Of a DNA stretch of 10,301 nucleotides, positions 1 through 10,301 are shown in pieces. Made by a program: the position numbers and the translations under genes. Every line of letters starts with the position of its first letter. Within the stretch, counting starts at the first letter, position 1. Source of the stretch: a virus (taxonomy: Duplodnaviria; Heunggongvirae; Uroviricota; Caudoviricetes); the IMG/VR virus record IMGVR_UViG_2531839668_000006; one strand, 5' to 3'. The notes under the pieces were generated by a model, which was not told the DNA's origin, ran no database searches, and saw only the letters and a program-made list of their open reading frames with translations.

Positions 1-213
1 TTTTTTTTTACCAGAAAGTATACTCTCTGCATACTCTGGCTTAATCGATAATAAAACTTTCATCAACACCTCCCTGTAAGACAATCTGCTTAAATGCTGA
101 ATCAGTTAGTGGTAAAAAACCCCAATAATCACTATTGGTATAACCTGTAATATTCATGATTTCATCACGAATAACTCTTTTTTCCAAAGGGAAATTATAA
201 GTAAACCGTATAA

Positions 214-621
214 TTATCGGATAATTTTTTTCATATATAGAAGCTGTAACTCATCTTCATCAAAAACGCTATAAGGTTCACAGTAATTCTTAAATTCCTC
301 ATAAGTTAAGAAATCGTGAATATCTTTAATTTCCTGAACCACACACACTGAAGTTGCAACAGATCTAAACCGAGCTGGACCTTGTCCATCTGAAGTACGA
401 TAAATAAGCAAATTATCTCCAGGCTTTAGGCTGGCTACCCCATGCATTTTTGTTAAGTATACTTTTTCAATACTGTTGGTATGTGATATATCAGCGATGA
501 TACCAGCACTCTCATTGTGGAGTTTTGACTCAGGGAAAAGACGTGTATGCCATGCAGGATAAATACTTAATAGATAATTTCTCCCCTGCAATTTGACTAA
601 GGGATAATTAGCATAGCTCAT
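214..621 (-). CDS. Hypothetical protein (135 aa), second gene of AT-rich cargo cassette; fold unassigned, weak PUA-like/ASCH-like beta-barrel impression
   Basis: ATG at 621..619 preceded by AAGGAG with about 7 nt spacing (reverse complement of 628..633). Visibly AT-rich compared with the phage core. Fold suggestion rests only on loose motifs (LQGR near N-terminus, LKPGDNLL loop). Confidence 0.5.
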   Translation of the reverse strand: MSYANYPLVKLQGRNYLLSIYPAWHTRLFPESKLHNESAGIIADISHTNSIEKVYLTKMHGVASLKPGDNLLIYRTSDGQGPARFRSVATSVCVVQEIKDIHDFLTYEEFKNYCEPYSVFDEDELQLLYMKKIIR

Positions 622-624
622 TTT

Positions 625-1095
625 TTACTCCTTCCATACCAAGTTTTTAAAGTATACACCTTCTTGCCCATTAATCGTAGAAAGATTTTTCCTCGCCTTT
701 AAAACAAAACCATATTTAGTTAATAAGCGAATTAATCCTGAATGCTTATCAAATATAGTAACATATACTTCTTTTAGTTTGTTTCTCATAGCAAATTGAA
801 ACATAATTCTAATAAAACGCTCTCCAAGTTTGGTTCCATGAGCATCGATTTTAAATGTGCCAAGCTTTACTCGCTTCATCTTTGGAAACGTTGGAGTCAT
901 ATCACTCAACTCTTCATCTTCTATTTTCAAATAGAGAAAACCATCGATTTCACCTAATTCATTACGTGATACAAACGCCTTATTTTTACCTTTTGAGAGA
1001 AACCAAACATCAAATCCTTCATAATCAGCTCTTAGGCTGTTAAAAAACGGATCTTTTAAATCGATATCACTAAAAAATTTTTCCTCGATAGACAT
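625..1095 (-). CDS. GNAT-fold (acetyltransferase-like) protein, 156 aa, first gene of AT-rich cargo cassette
   Basis: ATG at 1095..1093 with an upstream AGAGGAA Shine-Dalgarno-like sequence. C-terminal half has GNAT-like topology: VKLGTFKID, an HGTKLGER loop, then EVYVTIFDKHSGLIRLLTKYGF resembling GNAT motif B. Called from motif memory only. Confidence 0.5.
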   Translation of the reverse strand: MSIEEKFFSDIDLKDPFFNSLRADYEGFDVWFLSKGKNKAFVSRNELGEIDGFLYLKIEDEELSDMTPTFPKMKRVKLGTFKIDAHGTKLGERFIRIMFQFAMRNKLKEVYVTIFDKHSGLIRLLTKYGFVLKARKNLSTINGQEGVYFKNLVWKE

Positions 1096-1143
1096 CCAGT
1101 TCCTCTTCTAATGGCAGCGAGCAAGTGACCTTATCCTTACATG

Positions 1144-1170
1144 TTAATAGATAACCACAGCTGTAGGCAA
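1144..1170 (-). promoter_or_regulatory. Candidate sigma70 promoter for the cargo cassette (-35 TTGCCT, -10 TATTAA on - strand) with an 8-bp palindrome ACAGCTGT in the spacer
   Basis: Reverse complement of 1165..1170 is TTGCCT and of 1144..1149 is TATTAA, 15 bp apart, about 45 nt upstream of the ATG at 1095. Palindrome ACAGCTGT lies at 1157..1164. Confidence 0.25.
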
Positions 1171-1271
1171 TTACATACATTAAGCTCTATCAAACAACGA
1201 GCAAACTTAAGCACCGCTACAACTCAACCTAGCTGATGCCTGTTTTGACGATTACCCTATCAGCGCGCGCT

Positions 1272-1290
1272 CGTATCCCCGCCACGCCTG
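1272..1290. other. cos-like GC-rich core resembling the P2/186 cohesive-end sequence
   Basis: Reverse complement of 1272..1290 is GGCGTGGCGGGGATACGAG. As I recall them, the 19-nt cohesive ends are GGCGAGGCGGGGAAAGCAC (P2) and GGCGTGGCGGGGAAAGCAT (186), so the first 13 nt match the 186 form. Position (after the SOS operon and cargo) fits a P2-like prophage map. Recalled sequences are unverified. Confidence 0.4.
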
Positions 1291-1333
1291 CCCGCTTTAT
1301 GTAGTGGTTTTCATGCACCTGCATGATCTACGC

Positions 1334-1357
1334 AAAAGCCCGCCAGAACTGGCGGGC
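1334..1357 (-). terminator. Rho-independent terminator on the - strand, downstream of the lipoprotein gene
   Basis: GC-rich inverted repeat GCCCGCCAG (1338..1346) / CTGGCGGGC (1349..1357); the - strand transcript then reads UUUU (plus-strand AAAA at 1334..1337). Confidence 0.5.
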
Positions 1358-1461
1358 CTTAACACAAAAGATCCTCAAACGATCATGCGATCTCATGCAG
1401 CATAGACATGCGCGTTTATGCAGAATGTGCAAAATCGTAACATACTCAGCAAGCGTGAAAC

Positions 1462-2139
1462 CTAGAACGTGACAGCCTTGTCAAAGCCAGAAATAATTGT
1501 ATAAGAAATAGACGAGTTATCAGCCTTGTTCACTTTGAACTTGGCACCTTTGTAAGCGATAACGTCACTTCCCTTAGAATCTACAGAAAAATCTGTTGTA
1601 AATGCTGCACGAGCCATATCGTTTGCAAATTCACGATAGGTGAACTTCATTACACCGCCTGCATTTCCATTGTATTCGATAGTCTTAACCAATGAGTTAC
1701 TAACTCGACACAGCCCATCAGGAACACGTTTGATAGAAATTTCTGATGCAGTATAAGAAGTACCATTTGGCGGTGATATCTCATTTTTTGCAGCATCGTA
1801 ACTAACATAATCAACATAGTTACCGATTTGCCCATAGAGATTTTTTAACGCAACAGCTTGAGGGTTATGATAATTGCGGTAAATTCCATTCCCCTCACTG
1901 CAATATGTACCAGCAGCGATAGAAGACAATGCACCATTAGCCGCACCAAGTTCTAGTACGTCCGTTTTAAATCCAGTAGCAGATGTGATAATGGGATCGC
2001 CCATGTAGGCGGTAGCACTTTGCCCAATAGCAGGCTTCACCACTTCAATAGCAGTGATATTTCGGTTAGAAGCATGTGGCACGCAACCAGTTAGGATTAC
2101 AGCAAGAGATATTGGTAACGCTACATTATTAATTTTCAT
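1462..2139 (-). CDS. Predicted lipoprotein, 225 aa, unknown function (cargo between SOS operon and cos-like site)
   Basis: Internal ATG at 2139..2137 gives MKINNVALPISLAVILTGC, a typical lipoprotein signal peptide with lipobox LTGC. Mature part is Ser/Thr/Asn/Gly-rich. The longer ORF from 2193 would bury the signal peptide. Confidence 0.7.
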   Translation of the reverse strand: MKINNVALPISLAVILTGCVPHASNRNITAIEVVKPAIGQSATAYMGDPIITSATGFKTDVLELGAANGALSSIAAGTYCSEGNGIYRNYHNPQAVALKNLYGQIGNYVDYVSYDAAKNEISPPNGTSYTASEISIKRVPDGLCRVSNSLVKTIEYNGNAGGVMKFTYREFANDMARAAFTTDFSVDSKGSDVIAYKGAKFKVNKADNSSISYTIISGFDKAVTF

Positions 2140-2162
2140 TTTTAGCCTATTATTCTTTTCTT

Positions 2163-2197
2163 GACAAAAAACAAGGCGATATCTGATTGACATCGCC
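2163..2197 (-). terminator. Candidate Rho-independent terminator of the SOS operon (- strand)
   Basis: Stem GGCGAT (2175..2180) / ATCGCC (2192..2197), extendable by a wobble pair; the - strand RNA continues UUGUUUUUUGU (plus-strand A-run 2165..2173). Stem is short, loop about 11 nt. Confidence 0.4.
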
Positions 2198-2252
2198 TCT
2201 CACTCATATGTAACCCTTTTTGATTAGTAAAAACAAGCGTCTATTGACAAAA

Positions 2253-2486
2253 TCAATGCAGCCAGCTGTCGTCTTCCCACACCTTCTGCATAATTTTCAT
2301 CACTTGTTTTCTTTCTTCGTCCAGTTGCAGTCCGGTCAGTTCCACACCGTTAGAGCTACCTTTACGGATACGGATTACCGTTTTGGGATACAGGGGGCGC
2401 AGATTGCGGTAAAGCTCGGATTCAAGGGCGTCCAGGGTAGACTGGCTAATCTTCTGCTCTTTATCGATCATTATTTCAATGCGCAT
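2253..2486 (-). CDS. dinI: DinI-family protein (77 aa)
   Basis: From the internal ATG at 2486..2484 the product MRIEIMIDK...LDALESEL...ERKQVMKIMQKVWEDDSWLH aligns along its length with E. coli DinI as recalled (MRIEVTIAK...IDALAGEL...QETWESADDW). GAGGTG lies 6 nt upstream of the ATG. Confidence 0.85.
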   Translation of the reverse strand: MRIEIMIDKEQKISQSTLDALESELYRNLRPLYPKTVIRIRKGSSNGVELTGLQLDEERKQVMKIMQKVWEDDSWLH

Positions 2487-2496
2487 AAAAGTCACC

Positions 2497-2685
2497 TCAG
2501 TTGATGACATCCATTGAGCGGTTGTATTCGTGGCTTCTGATTTTTGCCATGAGTTCATCAGTCAATTCAGAAACCCACTGCAGAGCCAGCCCCTTCTCTT
2601 CATCACTACACTCACTAGCCGCTACAAGCTTAAGAAAAAAATCAATGCGCTGGAGCTTCAAAGACTCCAAAAAATAGTCCTGCAT
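2497..2685 (-). CDS. Small protein (62 aa), first gene of the LexA-controlled operon; positional analogue of the 186 Tum antirepressor
   Basis: ATG at 2685..2683 with a strong AGGAGG about 6 nt upstream (reverse complement of 2692..2697). Sits directly downstream of a LexA-box promoter and 10 nt upstream of the DinI-like gene. No family recognised from the sequence. Confidence 0.55.
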   Translation of the reverse strand: MQDYFLESLKLQRIDFFLKLVAASECSDEEKGLALQWVSELTDELMAKIRSHEYNRSMDVIN

Positions 2686-2726
2686 CTTTCCTCCTATGAC
2701 ACCACACGCAATACTGTATGCATAAC

Positions 2727-2769
2727 CACTGTTTATATTTACAGTATATAATAATCTTACTGATGTAAA
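2727..2769 (-). promoter_or_regulatory. SOS promoter with LexA operator (CTGT-N8-ACAG) overlapping the -10 element
   Basis: 2727..2746 reads caCTGTttatatttACAGta, matching the LexA box consensus TACTGT(AT)4ACAGTA. On the - strand a -35 TTTACA (2769..2764) and -10 TATACT (2748..2743) put the operator across the -10 and start site. A CTGT half-site also lies at 2714..2717. Confidence 0.7.
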
Positions 2770-2838
2770 ACGTTTTTTTACGCTTATCAGCCTGATATGC
2801 CTGGTATTATTAAGAGCACGAATTGTTAACCAGCGTAA

Positions 2839-5253
2839 TTAATACAGGTTCCGCCACTTATCATCTTCCTGCAAACGCTGGTTCCGATAGAAGATACGCA
2901 GGCCTGCTCCTGACGGAATACTGCCGCCGCGAAGGAGTAAATCGACCTCTTTCTCGCTGCCATCAAATCCTCTGGATTTCAGTTCATAGACGAGCTGCTG
3001 TCGTTGATGGTCTGTAATTCGCTGTTTGTAGTCTCTACGCCGTTTCGGTTTCACCAGACGTAACCTTGCAGCCAATTCCCGGCGCTCCTTTTTGTTCATA
3101 CTGTGCAGGTAATCGTGCAACACCTTGTCATCCATGCGGGTAATGTCCGTTCTGGGGTCCCCATCAGCTGATTTATCTTTCTCCTGTTGGTTCAAATTTT
3201 CAGCAAGGGGACAGTTATTGCCACGAGTCCAAGGGGCGCAAGCGCCCTGGTCGGCTGCCGCCTCCTGAACGTCAACGGCCTTACGAACCATTTTCCACTT
3301 CACGGCATGAGTGCAGATCTTGCCCTCTGCAATAGGTGACCAGATGCCATAAATACGAATGCCGTGATCGCCATAGGCGGTCGGCTCTTCGTTGATTTCA
3401 TAAGCAGTTCTGATGAGGTGATATTTGCGGGGAACCAGTACGCCACCCTGCTTCATGATGTAGGTGGCAAAACAACCAGCATCAGCAGCAGCCAGAATGG
3501 CATCAAGGCGCGGGTTATCCAGTACCGGCGCACCTGCTTTTTTGTCCCCCTGTTGCCTTGCCGCCTGACCAGCCAGCAATCGCAGTTCACGGTAAGCCTG
3601 ACGCCCCGGAATGCCAAAGAAGCGGAATTGCTGAACACGATGCAGAGACGCCCAGGCATTAACGTATTCAGCATTATCACGCAGGGATTTCCCCGTTTCC
3701 TTGCTGATCTCGCCAGCCAGACCACGCCCGTCAATGTTCTTACTGATGTATTTCGCGATGTAGCTTGTTGGCGTACCTTTGCGCGGGTTAATCAACTCAG
3801 ACTTAAAGCGCGGCCCAGTGTTATTGCCCAGCTCCTCGCGGTCTTCACGGATGGCAAACTTACGCAGTAATGCAGTGATGGTGCGGCGGTCTTTTTTGCG
3901 CATAAAACACAACAGGTGCCAGTGAACTGTACCGTCATGATGCGGCTCAGCCACCCGCACGCCATACCACCGCAATCCGGCTTTGTGCATCGCCTTACGA
4001 AATGCAGCAAACATGCCGACCAGATAATCACTGCTTTGTCTTACCGTCGCATTTGTCCAGGTTGGGTTGGGCCTGCCGTTATTTAGCGTGGAATGGAAAC
4101 GTGACGGACAGGTGATGGTGTAGAAAACGGCGCAGTCACCGCGCATTTCCGCGATAAGCTCCAGACCTTTAACACAGGCCATCATCTCATTGCGGCGATG
4201 CGCTGGGTTGCTGCTGCTGGCGTTTACCACATCCTCCATGTCCAGCGTGTCGCCGTCTTCGTTCACCAGTTCATGAGAACGGAAAAACTCCAGCGACTTA
4301 CGGCGCTGCTCACGTTTATGCATCACGGCTTCATAGCTGACATAAGGAGATGCTTTTTTGCTGACAAGGCAGACTGCACGCAACTGCTCTTCCCGCCATT
4401 CGCAACGCATCTTCCATAATTTCCGATACCACCAGTCGGCGCACAACATACGCGCCAGCGAACCCGGAATGAGTTCATAGGGCACGGGTTTACGGCGGTT
4501 TCTTTTCCGACGGAGTTGCTCAAACGCAGGCGGGATGACATCCAGACGCAGGGTTTCCGCTGCCACCCTTTCCCATGTATTGCGGATTTCTTCTGGCTTA
4601 ACGTCATCGGTGGCATACAAATCGCCACAAGCGGCATCAAGGCACATACTCATATGCGCAGCTACCAGGGTGGACAGGCGTTTCACCTGATCCTGACTCA
4701 TTTCAGGCAGGATCAGCAGGCCGTCCAGCCCTTCATGGCTTGCCATAAAGCGAAAAGATGCAGATAGCTGACTGTCGCGTACATGCTCCAGTCGTTCCAG
4801 ACATGGCTTAATCGTCTCACGTAAATAGCGGGAATAAGCCTTTGGCCTGCCCAGGCTGCTGAAGTATTCAATACGTTGCATCAGCGGCTTGCTGATATGG
4901 GAAGGCTGGGCGTTGACGTCCGCCAGAATGACCATATCCGGATTAAAACGCTGCTGCTCATGCGCCAGCTTTGCCCGACTAATGAGCTTATCCTGTTCCA
5001 TTTCGCGCTGGACAGGATCACGGGATTCATTAAAGAAATAACGCTCCCAGACCTGATCACTCAGCGCCTCACGGCGCAGCTGTTCCTGCTCGTTATCGGC
5101 AGCGTACAGAGTGATCAGGTTTGAAAGCGTAGAAACCGGCGCAACTTCCACCGGGTCCAGATAAGGGTTAATGGCCTTTTTCGGGCTGTTCCATGAGAAC
5201 GATGCGGCAGCTTCGTTAAAGCCGCAGCAGTTGTTCATATCGGCATGACTCAT
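2839..5253 (-). CDS. A: P2 gpA-type rolling-circle replication initiator (804 aa)
   Basis: Contains an HUH-type motif VHWHLL (codons at about 3916..3924) and paired active-site tyrosines SYIAKYISK (Tyr codons 3762..3760 and 3750..3748), as in phiX174/P2 gpA. Start ATG at 5253..5251 overlaps the Dam stop codon (ATGA). Confidence 0.9.
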
Positions 5254-6107
5254 GCACGTACTCCGTACACGGCAGAACTATCCACGCCACGCGAATAATC
5301 AAATCCCACCCAGCAGCGCGGCCCGGAAACAGCAATGATTTCTGTTGCTGATTTACCCTCGCCAGCTGCCACACCGATGCTGCGTTTTGCCTTGATGTAG
5401 TGGTGAGTAAAATTGCGATACAGCGAACGGATCAGGGATGTGTCACTGTTAGAAACAATGACCGGATGTCCTTCTGATGACCGATGTTCAAGAACAGATG
5501 CCAGGTGATACTGGTCATCTTCAGTGAAGCCGTCAGTGTGATAGCCGGAAAACGTACCGTCATACGGCGGATCGCAATACACCACATCCCCCGCCTTCAA
5601 CATCGCCAGCGTTTCATCAAAGCTGGCGCAGATAAACGTTGCTCGCTGGGCCTTTTCTGCAAATGCGCGAATTTCTTTTTCAGGGAAATACGGATTTTTA
5701 TAATTACCGTAGGGAATGTTGAAATGCCCGCTCTTGTTATAGCGACATAAACCACGGTAACCGTGACGATTGAGATACAGGAAATATACCGCTTTCATGA
5801 AATCAGTAATTTCAGTTGAGTAATTAAACTCCTGCCTTATGTTGTAATAAGCCACCTCCCTGTTTGCGATCTCAAATAAAACTCTGGCGCGAGATATAAA
5901 CGATTCACAATCAGCGGCAACCTTTTTATAGAGGTTGATTAAATCAGGATTAATATCCGCAACCAGATAGCTGGGATAATCCGTCTCCATCATCACAGCA
6001 CAGGAACCCGCGAAAGGTTCAACCAGTCGCGGGCCAGCAGGAAGATGTTTTTTCAGTTCGGACATTATGGCAGTTTTATTTCCCGCCCATTTCAGGATGG
6101 TGCTCAT
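5250..6107 (-). CDS. dam: DNA adenine methyltransferase, Dam/D12 class (285 aa from internal start)
   Basis: Motifs [18 protein letters not shown] (AdoMet binding) and DPPY (catalytic). Preferred start is the ATG at 6107..6105, preceded by GGAGGTG and overlapping the TraR-like stop (ATGA); the longer ORF from 6167 overlaps the upstream gene. Confidence 0.9.
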
Positions 6108-6331
6108 ACAGCACCTCCGTTGTAATGTTTGCCTTTCAGCTCTGCGATTTCCTGACAGGTAATGCAAAGCTGCACACCCGGAATGGCACGGCGGCGTGCT
6201 GGCGGAATTGGCGCTTCACACTCAATGCAAAGCACGCGGGACACGCCCGGCGTTTTGGCACGGGCAGCACGGATATGGCGTTGGCGTTCTTCTTCAACGC
6301 GCTGCTGTACGAGATCCATTGCATCAGCCAT
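6104..6331 (-). CDS. TraR/DksA-family C4 zinc-finger protein (75 aa)
   Basis: CIEC...(16 residues)...CITC zinc-finger spacing typical of phage TraR/DksA-like proteins. Start ATG at 6331..6329 overlaps the upstream stop (TAATG). Confidence 0.8.
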   Translation of the reverse strand: MADAMDLVQQRVEEERQRHIRAARAKTPGVSRVLCIECEAPIPPARRRAIPGVQLCITCQEIAELKGKHYNGGAV

Positions 6332-6564
6332 TAGTGGATCTCCTGCGCTTCGTTCTGGATTGCTTCAGCAGTCACACGAAGCAGTTCTGCCGCTTCGACG
6401 TGGGTTAGCTGGCGGGATGTGATATGACACGCCAGGCTATCAAGGCGAGCTGCCATTGCTTCAGCCCTTGCCCGGCGTTCTTCCAGACGAGCCTCTGTCA
6501 GTAAAATATTAAGCCCTGCGTCATCCGGTCCGGTTTTGGTCGAGAGGGTTTCAATATTACGCAT
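6331..6564 (-). CDS. Hypothetical early-operon protein (77 aa)
   Basis: ATG at 6564..6562 preceded by AGGAGA with 7 nt spacing; the ORF-track start at 6570 is a TTG. Acidic, Ala/Arg-rich and probably helical. Position matches the small orf80-83 block of P2-like phages. Confidence 0.55.
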   Translation of the reverse strand: MRNIETLSTKTGPDDAGLNILLTEARLEERRARAEAMAARLDSLACHITSRQLTHVEAAELLRVTAEAIQNEAQEIH

Positions 6565-6631
6565 AATCAATTCTCCTGAATTTAGATAAAGGGATGCCCG
6601 GCGGGTTTACGCCATTAATTTCATTGGTTGG

Positions 6632-6973
6632 TTAATTCGGCATGGTTAGCCGTCTGGGAAATAAGCTCACCACTGCACGAAAATGATTCATTGCTTTAAT
6701 CAACTCCCGCTTTTCGTCAGTGGTCAGCTCATTAATGCTGATGCTATGACGTTCAGCTGGAATTTTTGCCATAAAGAATATGGCAGCCAGTGCCCGTTTA
6801 TTTTGTTCGTTATTGATATCCCGTGGATCACGCATATCTTTAATAAACCGCTCAAGCTCTGACTCAATATTCAGGCCAAATACTTTCGCCCTTAATTCCG
6901 CAATGTGATTAAGTCCATTCAGGCGTTCTCCGGGGCTTAATGGAACAGTCGCCGCAGCGCCATTAATTGCCAT
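6632..6973 (-). CDS. Hypothetical early-operon protein (113 aa)
   Basis: ATG at 6973..6971 with a GGGGGA Shine-Dalgarno-like sequence 8 nt upstream; same orientation and tight spacing as neighbours. No family recognised. Confidence 0.6.
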   Translation of the reverse strand: MAINGAAATVPLSPGERLNGLNHIAELRAKVFGLNIESELERFIKDMRDPRDINNEQNKRALAAIFFMAKIPAERHSISINELTTDEKRELIKAMNHFRAVVSLFPRRLTMPN

Positions 6974-6995
6974 ACTTCATATCCCCCAAACGCAC

Positions 6996-7220
6996 CTATC
7001 GTTCTTTGTTCTTACGGTAACGCTCAAGGGGAGATACATTTTTTCGTACCGTCTCTTTAACCTGCTCTCCCCGTAAAAACGTCCCATCCTTTAGCGTGAA
7101 AAAGTAACTGCCATCGCCCGACAACGACGGATAACAACAGAGCAAATCATCTTCAGGTACTGAATAACTCTCCCCTCTGTAACAAAACTGATAAACCACT
7201 TCACTTTCCGCTGCATACAT
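6996..7220 (-). CDS. Hypothetical small protein (74 aa)
   Basis: ATG at 7220..7218 with an upstream GGAGA. Protein-like composition (MYAAESEVVYQFCYRGESYSVPEDD...). Overlaps the 3' part of the Fil-like frame. Confidence 0.45.
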   Translation of the reverse strand: MYAAESEVVYQFCYRGESYSVPEDDLLCCYPSLSGDGSYFFTLKDGTFLRGEQVKETVRKNVSPLERYRKNKER

Positions 7221-7387
7221 TTTGACTTTCTCCGTTTCCTCGTGGTCAATTCAGACAGCAATTCATCTTGTGAATGACATGGATGCCAGCGTTTTCCATC
7301 CTCACCCATGATCCAGCCGTGACCGTAGTGCATTGCCGGGCTTTGCTTTACCAGCAGCGATGCAAATGATGGTTCTTTCGTCAGCAT
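7091..7387 (-). CDS. Possible Fil-like early protein (frame open for 98 aa; 3' portion doubtful, possibly frameshifted)
   Basis: ATG at 7387..7385 lies 8 nt after the CII stop with GAGGTG upstream. N-terminal part (MLTKEPSFASLLVKQSPAMHYGHGWIMGEDGKRWHPC...) looks protein-like; the C-terminal 40 residues are Arg/Cys-rich and overlap the 74-aa ORF. Fil assignment is by position and vague recall. Confidence 0.3.
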   Translation of the reverse strand: MLTKEPSFASLLVKQSPAMHYGHGWIMGEDGKRWHPCHSQDELLSELTTRKRRKSKCMQRKVKWFISFVTEGRVIQYLKMICSVVIRRCRAMAVTFSR

Positions 7388-7394
7388 AAGCACC

Positions 7395-7904
7395 TCACAG
7401 CAAACCGAATGAAGCACCGAGTCCGGTCACGGTATCAACTGCACTCGCCATCGCAGGGTTAGCCTGTAAACGGGCCTGCAATGAAACAGCAGCCAACGCC
7501 ATCAGTCGTGTTACAGAGTTAATGCTGCTGATAGCATCACGACGACCTGCACTGGTTTTTACATCGCCAGATACCGCACCTGCAGCAACACGCCCGATCT
7601 CTGCGGTTGCACTCATGACGTAATGTGGCAGTTTCTCTTTTGCCACCTCATTAATCGGTACACATGGCAGACAATGAATCTGTGCCAGAAAACCATCTAC
7701 CAGCGTTGAATCTTCAGTCAGATCGGTAAGCAGCCAGATTTCTGGTGCGGTTAATAGATGAGGCTGAGCTGGGTTCAGCTTGTTCCGCAGAATCTGCACA
7801 TTCATGCCTGCACGTTCTGCCAGTTGCACCAGATTGTGGCGCAGTGCAAATGCACGACAGGCTTCATCAAAATGTGGATGTTTGGAAACTTGGTAATCAA
7901 ACAT
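7395..7904 (-). CDS. cII: 186 CII-like early regulator (169 aa)
   Basis: Second gene of the early operon, immediately after the Apl-like gene. Length from the ATG at 7904 matches the 169 aa of 186 CII as I recall it. The ORF-track start at 7910 is a TTG; AGAGG lies 8 nt upstream of the ATG. Confidence 0.7.
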
Positions 7905-7936
7905 GGTCAATGCCTCTGATGTATTTCAGAATCGAA

Positions 7937-8158
7937 CTAATTAAGGTTTAGATTGCATTCTGAAAGCGCATCAACGGTCATGGCTGCTATGTTGATCATC
8001 ACTTTTTCGCGTTTTTTATCTTTGCGCAAACGGTGACGGATAAGGCGTCCGTCAGCCAACATGTCATTGATGGTATCGATGGACAGCCCTGTCAGCTCGC
8101 TATAGCGCTCAATAGTCACATGAGGCGTGGTAAGAGTGATTGAAATGTTAGGTCTCAT
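7937..8158 (-). CDS. apl: Apl/Cox-like small HTH regulator/excisionase (73 aa)
   Basis: First gene of the leftward operon, divergent from cI. HTH-like segment [25 protein letters not shown] followed by a basic tail. Size and position match Apl (186) / Cox (P2). Confidence 0.65.
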
Positions 8159-8283
8159 GATGCAACATTCCTCGTTTAATGATGATTAATCAGGACGAAT
8201 ACGGATCGTTTGTACTTTGTGAACACCATAAACATACGATCGCAAAATGAAATCGTCAAGATAAAAGTTCACTTGGAGTGACC
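8159..8283. promoter_or_regulatory. Lysis-lysogeny switch region between apl and cI with candidate pR and operator-like inverted repeats
   Basis: Candidate - strand promoter: -35 TTGACG (reverse complement of 8254..8259), 17 bp, -10 TATGTT (reverse complement of 8231..8236). Inverted repeat GATCGTTTGT (8204..8213) / ACATACGATC (8232..8241), one mismatch, overlaps that -10. A second repeat TTAAT-N4-ATTAA lies at 8176..8189. No convincing rightward promoter for cI found. Confidence 0.45.
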
Positions 8284-8853
8284 ATGAATTTGGAGAAAGG
8301 CGGACGAGGCGCTATAGAGCGCATGGTAGAAGCTTATGGATTCAAAACTCGACAGGCGTTGTGCGATCATTTAGGAATCTCTAAAAGTACACTCGCCACA
8401 CGCTACATGCGTGACTCATTCCCAGCAGAATGGGTAATCCAGTGCGCCCTTGAAACGGGCACCTCGCTTAATTGGCTCACAACCGGACATGGTTCAAAGC
8501 AAACTTCAGGTAATACAAATACTATGGAAGTTGCTAAATATGTATTATCTGATGGTGCCTTGCGTGAAGACGGTTTTTATATTTTTGATAAGGGATTTCT
8601 ACCCTCTACGTTTAAAAAACCTTTTGTCATCACAGATAACAATTCTGAATTTATTTGTGATAAAGAATTTGATGATATACGTGATGGTAAATGGGTAATA
8701 AGTATTGATGGCGAAGTAACGATCCGTGACATTACTCGTTTACCCGGTGGAAGAATCTTCGTCGAGGGTGGAAACAGAGCCTTCGAATGTAAGATAGAAG
8801 ACATTGAAATAATTGGTAAAATTATAAGTTTAACAGTCAAGTATGTTAAATAG
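8284..8853 (+). CDS. cI: 186-type CI repressor (189 aa)
   Basis: N-terminal HTH region (AYGFKTRQALCDHLGISKSTLATRYMRDSFPAEWVIQCALETGTSLNWLTTG) matches the 186 CI-type repressor pattern as recalled. Length matches 186 CI (about 192 aa). GGAG lies 5 nt upstream of the ATG at 8284; the ORF-track start at 8278 is a GTG. Confidence 0.8.
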   Translation: MNLEKGGRGAIERMVEAYGFKTRQALCDHLGISKSTLATRYMRDSFPAEWVIQCALETGTSLNWLTTGHGSKQTSGNTNTMEVAKYVLSDGALREDGFYIFDKGFLPSTFKKPFVITDNNSEFICDKEFDDIRDGKWVISIDGEVTIRDITRLPGGRIFVEGGNRAFECKIEDIEIIGKIISLTVKYVK

Positions 8854-8868
8854 CACCGGGAGGAAACT

Positions 8869-9060
8869 ATGCTTGGTAAGGTATTTTTTGTGGTTTTGTC
8901 ATGTTCTTTGTTATTAAACCCACTAACTACCTATGCTAGAAATTATCCCTGCTCAGGGAAAAAGGGAGGTGTTTCTCACTGTACCTCAGATGGCAAATTC
9001 GTTTGCAATGATGGAACTATTAGTAAATCCAAAAAAATCTGTACTAAAAACTCACGATAA
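8869..9060 (+). CDS. Small secreted Cys-rich protein (63 aa) between cI and int
   Basis: Strong GGGAGG with 5 nt spacing before the ATG at 8869. N-terminal hydrophobic signal-like segment ([22 protein letters not shown]), then a Lys/Gly/Ser-rich region with four cysteines. AT-rich. Confidence 0.55.
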
Positions 9061-9195
9061 CTTTTGCTTTTATATCTGCGTCTAAAATAAAAATGAGCCG
9101 CAGGTTAACCGCAAAAGTTACATGCTCACATAGCAAAAAGAATAGCCAACTTCATTATGGCTTCAGTGAGATGTATGGTCGTAGGATTTCATACA

Positions 9196-9224
9196 TTGAC
9201 ACTGGTTATACATACAGTAAAAAT
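9196..9224 (+). promoter_or_regulatory. Candidate int-proximal sigma70 promoter (-35 TTGACA, -10 TAAAAA)
   Basis: Perfect TTGACA at 9196..9201, 16-17 bp spacer, then TAAAAA/AAAAAT at 9218..9224, about 25 nt upstream of the int ATG and its GGAGGG at 9235..9240. Confidence 0.3.
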
Positions 9225-9248
9225 GCTCTCTACTGGAGGGCATTTTTT

Positions 9249-10301
9249 ATGGCAGTACGAAAACTCACCACAGGGAAATGGCTTTGCGAATGTTACCCCG
9301 CCGGACGAAGTGGGCGTCGTGTGCGTAAACAATTCGCCACCAAAGGCGAAGCTCTGGCTTTTGAGCGTCACACTATGGAAGAAACCGAATCAAAGCCATG
9401 GCTGGGCGAATCAGTGGATCGTCGAACCCTGAAAGACGTGGTTGAGCTATGGTTCAAACTACATGGTAAATCTCTGACTGCTGGGCAGCATGTCTATGAC
9501 AAATTGCTGCTGATGGTTGACGCTCTGGGCAATCCTCTTGCAACCGATCTCACCTCTAAAATGTTTGCCCACTATCGAGATAAACGCCTGACAGGCGAGA
9601 TCTACTTCAGCGAGAAATGGAAGAAAGGAGCAAGCCCGGTCACCATTAACCTGGAGCAAAGCTATCTAAGTAGTGTTTTTAGCGAACTATCCCGTCTGGG
9701 CGAATGGTCGTATCCGAACCCACTGGAGAACATGCGAAAATTCACCATCGCAGAAAAAGAGATGGCATGGCTTACCCATGAGCAGATTGTTGAATTACTG
9801 GCTGATTGCAAACGTCAGGACCCAATTCTAGCACTGGTAGTTAAGATATGCTTAAGCACAGGCGCACGCTGGCGAGAAGCCGTAAATCTTACTCGTTCAC
9901 AGGTGACCAAATACCGAATTACCTTTGTAAGAACGAAGGGGAAGAAAAACAGAAGTATCCCTATCAGTAAAGAGCTTTACGAAGAGATCATGGCGCTTGA
10001 TGGGTTCAATTTCTTCACAGACTGCTATTTTCAATTTTTATCCGTGATGGAAAAAACGTCTATCGTGCTCCCTCGCGGTCAACTCACACACGTTCTGCGC
10101 CATACGTTTGCGGCGCACTTCATGATGTCGGGTGGAAACATTCTGGCCTTACAAAAAATTCTCGGACACCACGATATAAAAATGACTATGCGTTACGCAC
10201 ATCTGGCACCGGATCATCTGGAAACGGCGCTCCGTTTCAATCCTCTGGCAACGCTGCCAAGTGGCGACAAAGTGGCGGCAGCGGTTGGCATTACCCCGTA
10301 A
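9249..10301 (+). CDS. int: P2-family tyrosine integrase (350 aa from internal start)
   Basis: C-terminal catalytic region (CLSTGARWREA, RITFVRTKGKKNRSIPIS, HVLRHTFAAHFMMSGGNILALQKILGHHDIKMTMRYAHLAP) closely resembles P2 Int as recalled. The ATG at 9249 has GGAGGG 8 nt upstream and begins MAVRKLTTGKW, like P2 Int MAIKKLDDGRY. The ORF from 9093 is a probable over-extension. The TAA stop is the last codon of the window. Confidence 0.9.
   Translation: MAVRKLTTGKWLCECYPAGRSGRRVRKQFATKGEALAFERHTMEETESKPWLGESVDRRTLKDVVELWFKLHGKSLTAGQHVYDKLLLMVDALGNPLATDLTSKMFAHYRDKRLTGEIYFSEKWKKGASPVTINLEQSYLSSVFSELSRLGEWSYPNPLENMRKFTIAEKEMAWLTHEQIVELLADCKRQDPILALVVKICLSTGARWREAVNLTRSQVTKYRITFVRTKGKKNRSIPISKELYEEIMALDGFNFFTDCYFQFLSVMEKTSIVLPRGQLTHVLRHTFAAHFMMSGGNILALQKILGHHDIKMTMRYAHLAPDHLETALRFNPLATLPSGDKVAAAVGITP

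Follow-up and report, generated by a model that had tools for sequence, protein, structure and literature searches.

The window, by which we mean the whole 10,301-nucleotide stretch of phage DNA that was analysed, is the early and cargo end of a Fels-2/P2-like prophage, reversed relative to the P2 map. This assignment follows from DNA identity together with the gene content recognized by Pfam. In DNA searches, positions 1260..10301 are 96-99% identical to Fels-2, to Salmonella RE2010 and to many P2-like phages of the Klebsiella 4LV2017 type, and positions 1..1259 are not common to these phages. The genes relevant to the present analysis are the following.

214..621, minus strand: cargo ORF of 135 aa, left of cos
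625..1095, minus strand: cargo ORF of 156 aa, left of cos
1462..2193, minus strand: cargo ORF of 243 aa, taken from the list of open reading frames, reading towards cos
2253..2558, minus strand: DinI/Tum-like protein (Pfam)
2839..5253, minus strand: replication protein A, gpA (Pfam)
5250..6167, minus strand: D12-class N6-adenine (Dam-type) methyltransferase (PF02086, E=1.2e-76), directly upstream of gene A and overlapping its start
9093 onwards, plus strand: integrase (Pfam)

The methyltransferase bears out the statement, made in a first-pass annotation of this DNA, that the element encodes its own Dam-type methylase. Its true start is likely an ATG near position 6107, and its ORF ends 4 nt inside the start of gene A, wherein both genes are on the minus strand and overlap at 5250..5253. 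This overlap suggests that translation of Dam and A is coupled in the early operon. The two cargo ORFs located left of cos match consecutive halves of the PADLOC candidate-defence profile PDC-M11A, covering profile positions 11-160 (E=1e-58) and 166-296 (E=1e-48) of 357. They look like one defence-candidate gene that has been split by a stop codon or a frameshift, or like a natural two-part version of it. The 243-aa cargo ORF has no match in Pfam or PADLOC. It includes a lipoprotein-like signal (MKINNVALPISLAVILTGC) after an internal methionine, and it is 99-100% identical in four IMG/VR loci.

The sequence that drew attention at first, positions 1313-1430, adjoins a cos site. Offsets are counted here from the nick, with +1 at position 1289, and the flagged segment thus spans +25..+142 on the gene A side. 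The features of this region are listed below.

1263..1269 (-26..-20): conserved GCGCGCG flank outside the cohesive end, left boundary of the conserved cos block
1270..1288, minus strand: cohesive end (cosN) of 19 nt, for which the minus strand reads GGCGTGGCGGGGATACGAG
1289..1326 (+1..+38), plus strand: proximal arm, TGCCCGCTTTATG....GGTTTTCATGCA..TGCATGA, with ATGCA at 1313..1317 (+25) and an inverted TGCAT at 1320..1324 (+32)
1325..1328 (+37): GATC abutting the inverted TGCAT
1335..1360, minus strand: GC-rich hairpin (AAAGCCCGCCAG/CTGGCGGGCCTT), an inverted repeat with 12-nt arms at 1335-1346 and 1349-1360, after which the minus strand continues with TTTTGCGT
1370..1375 (+82..+87): GATCCT, holding the first GATC of a conserved pair
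1381..1384 (+93..+96): the other GATC of the pair, spaced 11 bp from that at 1370 and followed immediately by the first distal ATGCG (GATCATGCG)
1385..1412, plus strand: distal array of three (C)ATGCR elements in the same orientation, at 1385 (+97), 1395 (+107) and 1408 (+120), right boundary of the conserved cos block
1389..1392 (+101): GATC overlapping the last base of the first distal repeat
1418..1422 (+130), plus strand: fifth ATGCA, outside the conserved block

The cohesive end, read as the reverse complement of 1270..1288, is identical to that of P2 (GGCGAGGCGGGGAAAGCAC) at 14 of 19 positions. It belongs to the same family of GC-rich, 19-nt 5' cohesive ends as those of P2, P4 and 186, although it is a different variant (the CTCGTAT... 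type, as in Fels-2). Written in window orientation (CTCGTATCCCCGCCACGCC), this variant is identical to the one that recurs in related IMG/VR loci. The nick is placed at 1288|1289 by the deposited linear genome ends of relatives, and not of this element, wherein the end of the SEN8 record aligns to 1289 and the starts of the SEN5 and Smp131 records align to 1288. The cos-like core that had been proposed here is therefore real. BLAST homology to relatives starts at 1260-1263, and the core conserved from -26 to +30 in P2, P4 and 186 is present.

In the Peduoviridae, cos is located between gene A with its cargo and the portal gene Q, and both flanks read towards it. The same genome place is found in this prophage as in P2, P4 and 186, with A and Dam to the right of the nick on the minus strand. 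Gene Q is outside this window, and its placement rests on 173 oriented related loci, in which Q and the terminase gene P are always left of the nick and A and Dam are right of it.

There are five plus-strand copies of the pentamer ATGCR, at 1313, 1385, 1395, 1408 and 1418 (+25, +97, +107, +120 and +130), exactly where they had been reported. The accompanying description of a recurrence at roughly 10-13 bp intervals holds for the distal copies, whose spacings are 10, 13 and 10 bp. However, the copies do not form one phased run, since the one at +25 is followed by a gap of 72 bp. A cluster of four ATGCR in 33 nt is found somewhere in the window in ~0.5% of random placements.

The stronger evidence for these repeats comes from related cos sites, which were collected by scanning IMG/VR twice and a species-representative genome set once with a cos-core pattern and orienting each match on the nick. 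Among 150 distinct right arms, a count that takes in arms of shared ancestry without correction for kinship, ATGCR is present at +25 in 149, at +95-98 in 138, at +105-109 in 136 and at +114-121 in 135, and 121 arms have all four. The exact offsets +97, +107 and +120 account for 128, 125 and 112 of these arms in a position histogram, and the inverted YGCAT is found at +32 in 107. The reference genomes exhibit offsets of 25/97/107/119 (P2) and 25/97/107/120 (186 and the satellite P4), compared with 25/97/107/120 plus the extra copy at +130 in the window. In several GC-rich or distant P2-like lineages (four loci), GTGCG, TTGCG or GTGCA is located at the equivalent offsets instead of ATGCA, and one of these loci (L108) has a spacer that is ~20 bp shorter.

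Between the proximal and distal elements, from +38 to +94, the sequence is largely unrelated between lineages, and in the distal arm P2 and P4 share essentially the ATGCA cores and their positions. This comparison carries particular weight because cos has been described as the only region common to P4 and P2 (PMC9122126). The inverted TGCAT and the palindrome in the centre of the spacer are absent from P2, and therefore neither is essential across the family.

The conservation profile of 141 representatives is high at -26..+38, which comprises the conserved core of ~55 bp around the cohesive end, and again at +95..+124, and it falls to zero left of -27 and after +124. Homology to phages that carry different cargo stops at ~1411. 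Because of these limits, 1263..1412 (-26..+124) is predicted to be the functional cos unit, which would be ~150 bp long with the flagged stretch as its right arm, on the replication-gene side. The conserved block ends a few bases past the third distal repeat (1411..1413, +123..+125). Since homology to phages with other cargo breaks there, the cargo/defence hotspot beside cos has its right junction directly at the last packaging repeat. The fifth ATGCA is found only in the four loci that have the same downstream 243-aa cargo gene, and it is probably not part of the core array.

The repeats are most likely a position-locked recognition array for terminase, because their offsets are locked to the nick across P2, 186 and P4, in most of the 150 arms and in about 200 relatives overall. 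A terminase-binding array was one of several functions offered in the first-pass annotation, and for ATGCR this comparison supports it well. It had also been accepted at the outset that repeats unconserved in related phages would count against the proposal. That objection fails for both kinds of element, since the ATGCR repeats recur at the same offsets in P2 and 186 and the GATCs at 1370 and 1381 are conserved in related phages. There is thus good reason to think that the ATGCR elements constitute the terminase recognition code of the P2 family, and their fixed spacing would reflect a defined protein-DNA architecture over ~125 bp.

The P2/P4 cos is cited in the literature as a '55-bp core' after Ziermann & Calendar 1990 (PMC3931495, PMC5694545, PMC9594776). 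The distal array lies outside this core, which corresponds to about -26..+30, and it is not described in the available text of the papers that cite the core. ATGCA elements are present in the P2, P4 and 186 sites at +25, +97, +107 and ~+120, as they are here. Ziermann and Calendar are said to have mapped a minimal cos of roughly 125 bp. P2/P4 cosmids with longer cos flanks transduce >1000-fold better (PMC9594776), and this gain fits a need for the distal array.

A second known arrangement is the cosB site of lambda. It comprises the small-terminase sites R3-I1-R2-R1 with a bend introduced by IHF. Both systems have short repeats beside the nicking site that are split by a spacer and that presumably position terminase on cosN, and in the window the repeated elements that adjoin cosN are position-locked and putatively bound by the small subunit. 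There is no sequence relation between the two, however, and no match to the IHF consensus WATCAANNNNTTR with up to one mismatch was found in 1289..1412. Moreover, the array in the window is on the A/Dam side, away from terminase gene P and portal gene Q, whereas lambda cosB is located between cosN and the terminase genes, at the end that is packaged first. The absence of an IHF site and the opposite side relative to the terminase genes argue that the array is not a homologue of lambda cosB. P2-type terminase packages monomeric circles.

The spacer of the window differs from those of P2, 186 and P4 in having a strong hairpin and a conserved GATC pair, the latter of which these three lack. The RNA of the minus strand is predicted to fold into a stable hairpin (z=-3.3) with an 11-bp GC-rich stem followed by UUUUGCGU, and this arrangement of hairpin and A-run is conserved in Fels-2-type phage arms. 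A consensus terminator scanner did not call the hairpin at 1335..1360. Rfam yields no family at threshold in the segment, and the sub-threshold match is a chance one. Nevertheless, the hairpin is probably the intrinsic terminator of a cargo or early transcript from 1462..2193, because the 243-aa ORF reads towards it. The transcript of this ORF would cross the distal array and then stop at the hairpin. The same gene orientation speaks against the suggestion that the segment controls the promoter of adjacent cargo, since transcription of the closest cargo gene is directed at the hairpin and the remaining cargo is on the far side of cos. The 8-bp inverted repeat GCATGATC/GATCATGC that had been noted at 1321..1328 and 1381..1388 is present and brackets the hairpin.

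We also considered whether the 243-aa ORF is a homologue of Orf97 of phage 186, and there is no homology despite their equal length and position. The hairpin therefore cannot be equated with the 186 terminator t95b by gene context, and t95b is farther from cos than the hairpin of the window.

The hexamer CGCCAG (partner CTGGCG) is the most enriched hexamer of the spacers, being present in 19 of 59 diverse representatives versus 1.9 expected. A CGCCAG-nn-CTGGCG palindrome occupies a fixed offset in the middle of the spacer (~1339..1354, +51..+66) in Fels-2-, 186- and P4-type arms. It is accompanied by a U-run in some cases and not in others, and both strands are represented. In 186 and P4 the palindrome is found at the same offset as the hairpin without a matching U-run, and P2 has none. 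Beyond any role in termination, the palindrome may bind a protein or have a structural function.

There are four GATC sites in the flagged segment, and the positions given for them (1325, 1370, 1381 and 1389) are correct. The claim that this cluster is far above chance was overstated. The window holds 35 GATCs versus 36.7 expected, which amounts to no overall enrichment, and four sites this close together arise somewhere in it in ~4% of random placements. By the window alone the cluster is only modestly unusual, and the strong evidence is comparative.

This comparison separates the four sites into two kinds. The GATC at 1325 is present in 16 of 96 distinct Fels-2-type arms, with most relatives reading GCATGACA, and the GATC at 1389 is present in 14 of the 96, wherein a change from ATGCGATTTC to ATGCGATCTC creates it. 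Both are recent single-base gains in this sub-lineage. In contrast, the pair at 1370 and 1381 is conserved to the same extent as the ATGC cores. Each base of GATCCT at +82..+87 is found in 89-98% of 45 species-level helper arms, and the second GATC is conserved at 96-100%. In the surrounding spacer of these 45 distinct in-register arms, the five nucleotides between the GATCs are conserved at ~50% and the five before the first at 40-64%.

Both GATCs of the pair are present in 44 of 48 phage loci when one genome is taken per species (Pantoea, Erwinia, Serratia, Citrobacter, Enterobacter, Klebsiella, Tatumella and others). The sequence context of the pair varies, being either direct (CGATC...CGATC, GAGATC...GAGATC) or inverted (GATCC...GGATC). 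What does not change is the 11-bp distance of the two GATCs, the CT that follows the first and the repeat that follows the second. Such constraint in helper phages argues for a function of the pair. The possibility that the two GATCs pair within an RNA hairpin was discarded, because there are no compensatory variants and the tetramers are simply invariant.

Outside the Fels-2 type, six loci of the 186-type/ATCGTA-type group, which lack Dam, have a different set of sites, with GATC(C) at +37 and again 10 bp on at +47, and a third at +90 that immediately precedes the distal array. For one 186-type group a DnaA-box reading of GTGATCCAC was considered, and by eye it does not extend to the Fels-2 type.

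Satellites of the same cos type provide a second comparison. P4-like satellites share the cohesive-end type and have a nearly identical distal array (TCATGCGTTTTCATGCAGCATAGACATGCAC). The GATC pair is present in 0 of 17 such satellites in the genome set, and in IMG/VR it is found in 83 of 87 phages versus 0 of 6 satellites, where satellites were recognized by an alpha-primase or Psu-like gene and are drawn from a small number of lineages. Since the pair is missing from satellites of this cos type, it must be dispensable for recognition by the helper terminase. In the right arms of 14 satellites (+78..+96), the array is near-identical to that of their presumed helpers. At the place of GATCCT-N5-GATC in the phages, these satellites tend to show a GGTGC(A/C)-like element, located ~13 bp ahead of the first repeat. 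This element may be a fourth repeat that strengthens terminase capture.

Taken together, these features suggest how the site might operate. The proximal element is a palindromic pair, TCATGCA..TGCATGA (+23..+38), and some seven turns of the helix separate it from the three direct repeats of the distal array (+97, +107 and +120). The ATGCR repeats would be bound by an oligomer of the small terminase subunit of P2 type (the gpM homologue), and the variable spacer of ~60 bp would be bent or looped. Through this bend or loop the large subunit would come to sit at the 19-bp nicking site, 1270..1288. The spacer would then be free to carry other signals, which here could be the hairpin that ends cargo or early transcription and the two GATCs 11 bp apart. 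The GATC pair would be a regulatory overlay on the array and not part of the recognition code. We assign a probability of about 80% to the main reading, namely that 1263..1412 is the complete cos of a Fels-2-type P2-like prophage, with an ATGCR recognition array and a regulatory overlay.

What the GATC pair does is a separate question. One possibility, which we regard as tentative and somewhat short of even odds, is that packaging is gated by methylation, as in the pac site of P1. Perhaps Dam methylation at 1370 and 1381 (and at 1325 and 1389 in the sub-lineage) alters the affinity of terminase, or perhaps hemimethylated sites recruit SeqA, and cos would be used only in a particular replication or methylation state. 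Such a gate would add to the explanation as a terminase array and would not replace it. It would account for the fact that only the palindromic GATC tetramers and their 11-bp, same-face spacing are invariant in a context that may be direct or inverted. In addition, an extended repeat (TCATGCG) shares bases with the second GATC, and ATGCR or TGCAT elements directly adjoin three of the four sites. The satellites keep the array and drop the GATCs, as would be expected if the sites restrain packaging instead of enabling it.

A Dam gene in the same lineage also favours a gate of this kind. Among the 29 Fels-2-type phages with enough flanking sequence, 24 have a Dam homologue, located next to gene A. 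The link between the two is not a discriminating one, however, because the GATC pair is present in 22 of the 24 Dam-positive phages and in 4 of the 5 Dam-negative ones. Four loci span cos to integrase without a methylase gene, yet keep the pair, which therefore is independent of phage Dam. Host Dam of Enterobacterales would methylate the pair anyway. Dam is absent from the P2-, 186- and P4-type arms, which for the most part also lack GATC at the pair positions, and their cos sites work without the pair in hosts that are equally Dam-positive, which counts against a gate.

The precedent for such regulation is P1 pac, which comprises seven TGATCA/G hexamers and an IHF site and is cleaved under the control of Dam (PMC10028697). 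The two sites are alike in having GATCs within or abutting the repeats of a packaging-recognition site and in being accompanied by a phage-encoded Dam. However, P1 packages by a headful pac mechanism and the window holds a cos system. Its GATC contexts (TGATCT, AGATCC, CGATCA and CGATCT) are all found to the same side of the nick and differ from the P1 hexamer, whereas P1 hexamers are present on both sides of the cut. Only two of these GATCs are conserved, their hexamers (AGATCC and CGATCA) differ from those of P1, and the ATGCR repeats themselves lack GATC. Because the hexamers differ, all sites are on one side and the system is a cos, the window site does not belong to the P1 pac class.

The involvement of SeqA had also been suggested. 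Clusters of GATC bound by SeqA are known at oriC, the dnaA promoter and P1 oriR, and binding by SeqA generally calls for two or more GATCs that face the same way on the helix and are no more than about three turns apart. The sites at 1370 and 1381 agree with this rule, being 11 bp apart, and those at 1381 and 1389 are 8 bp apart. The resemblance lies in same-face GATCs (11 bp) within DNA that becomes hemimethylated after replication, although the cluster in the window is much smaller. By analogy, the 11-bp spacing would be compatible with SeqA binding.

Another explanation, which is doubtful in our view, is that GATCCT and GATC(ATGC) are ordinary sequence-specific contacts of a helper or host protein, such as the large terminase subunit or a bending protein, and that methylation is irrelevant. 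The bases C and T at +86/+87 are as conserved as the GATC that precedes them, and the retention of the first site as GATCCT points to a longer, sequence-specific motif and away from a gate based on methylation. The same is suggested by GATCs in diverse arms, 31 of 40 of which are GGATC or GATCC. In 59 diverse spacers GATCC is enriched (17 versus 5.4 expected), and so is CGATCC (11 versus 1.6 expected). These motifs have different offsets in different lineages, as with those at +37/+47/+90 in the Dam-less 186-type group. On the other hand, the arm lacks an IHF consensus, the second site shares only GATC with the first, and satellites are packaged by the same machinery without both sites.

It is very unlikely that the GATC cluster as a whole is functionless and reflects only chance and shared ancestry in a closely related lineage. 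The probability of ~0.04 in the window, the lack of overall enrichment and the relatedness of the sampled arms are all in keeping with chance. So are the sites at 1325 and 1389, which are confined to a sub-lineage and have single-base origins, and for these two alone chance is the most likely reading. The pair at 1370 and 1381 is different, since it stands at 96-100% in sampling of one genome per species versus 40-64% for the adjacent spacer, as high as the ATGC cores.

Finally, the notion that the segment is mainly transcriptional (a terminator with a 3'-UTR, or a promoter for cargo) and that its repeats are unrelated to packaging can draw on the stable hairpin, which has a short U-run and is on the same strand as the upstream ORF, and on a weak promoter-like match at 1359-1386, but it is exceedingly improbable given that the distances between repeats and nick are fixed despite entirely different neighbouring genes, P4 satellites included, that the promoter candidate (TTAACA-16-GATCAT) is not conserved across arm types, that no Rfam family reaches threshold and that the left-hand cargo gene is on the other side of cos.

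The flagged element is real and of a known kind. Among the functions first proposed for it, the terminase-binding array is the best supported, and for two of the four GATCs a link to Dam still stands as a hypothesis. What is new is a more detailed anatomy of the P2-family cos, together with a GATC pair that is conserved in helpers only and was not found described in the literature searched.

The map that emerges for the cos of this family covers ~150 bp. It runs from the core through a spacer of variable sequence to three position-locked repeats, the last of which directly borders the cargo hotspot. It predicts which bases are important for efficient packaging and accounts for the gain in transduction with longer flanks. 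This is of practical interest, as P2/P4 cos sites are used for cosmids and transducing particles. The map also marks the right-hand recombination boundary of the defence-gene hotspot beside cos.

The GATC pair, being confined to helpers, offers a starting point for asking whether Dam methylation and packaging are linked in a cos phage, and how satellites compete for the helper terminase. A more elaborate proposal, which is unlikely as it stands, is that the cos of Fels-2-type helpers holds a methylation-sensing module made of two same-face GATCs fused to the first distal repeat, through which Dam and/or SeqA limit packaging to a particular replication state. P4-like satellites would have lost this module and would carry a GTGCA-like extra repeat in its place, and thus would escape control and compete for the helper terminase. 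If this proposal is true, the site would be the first Dam-gated cos and would reveal a new axis of helper-satellite conflict.
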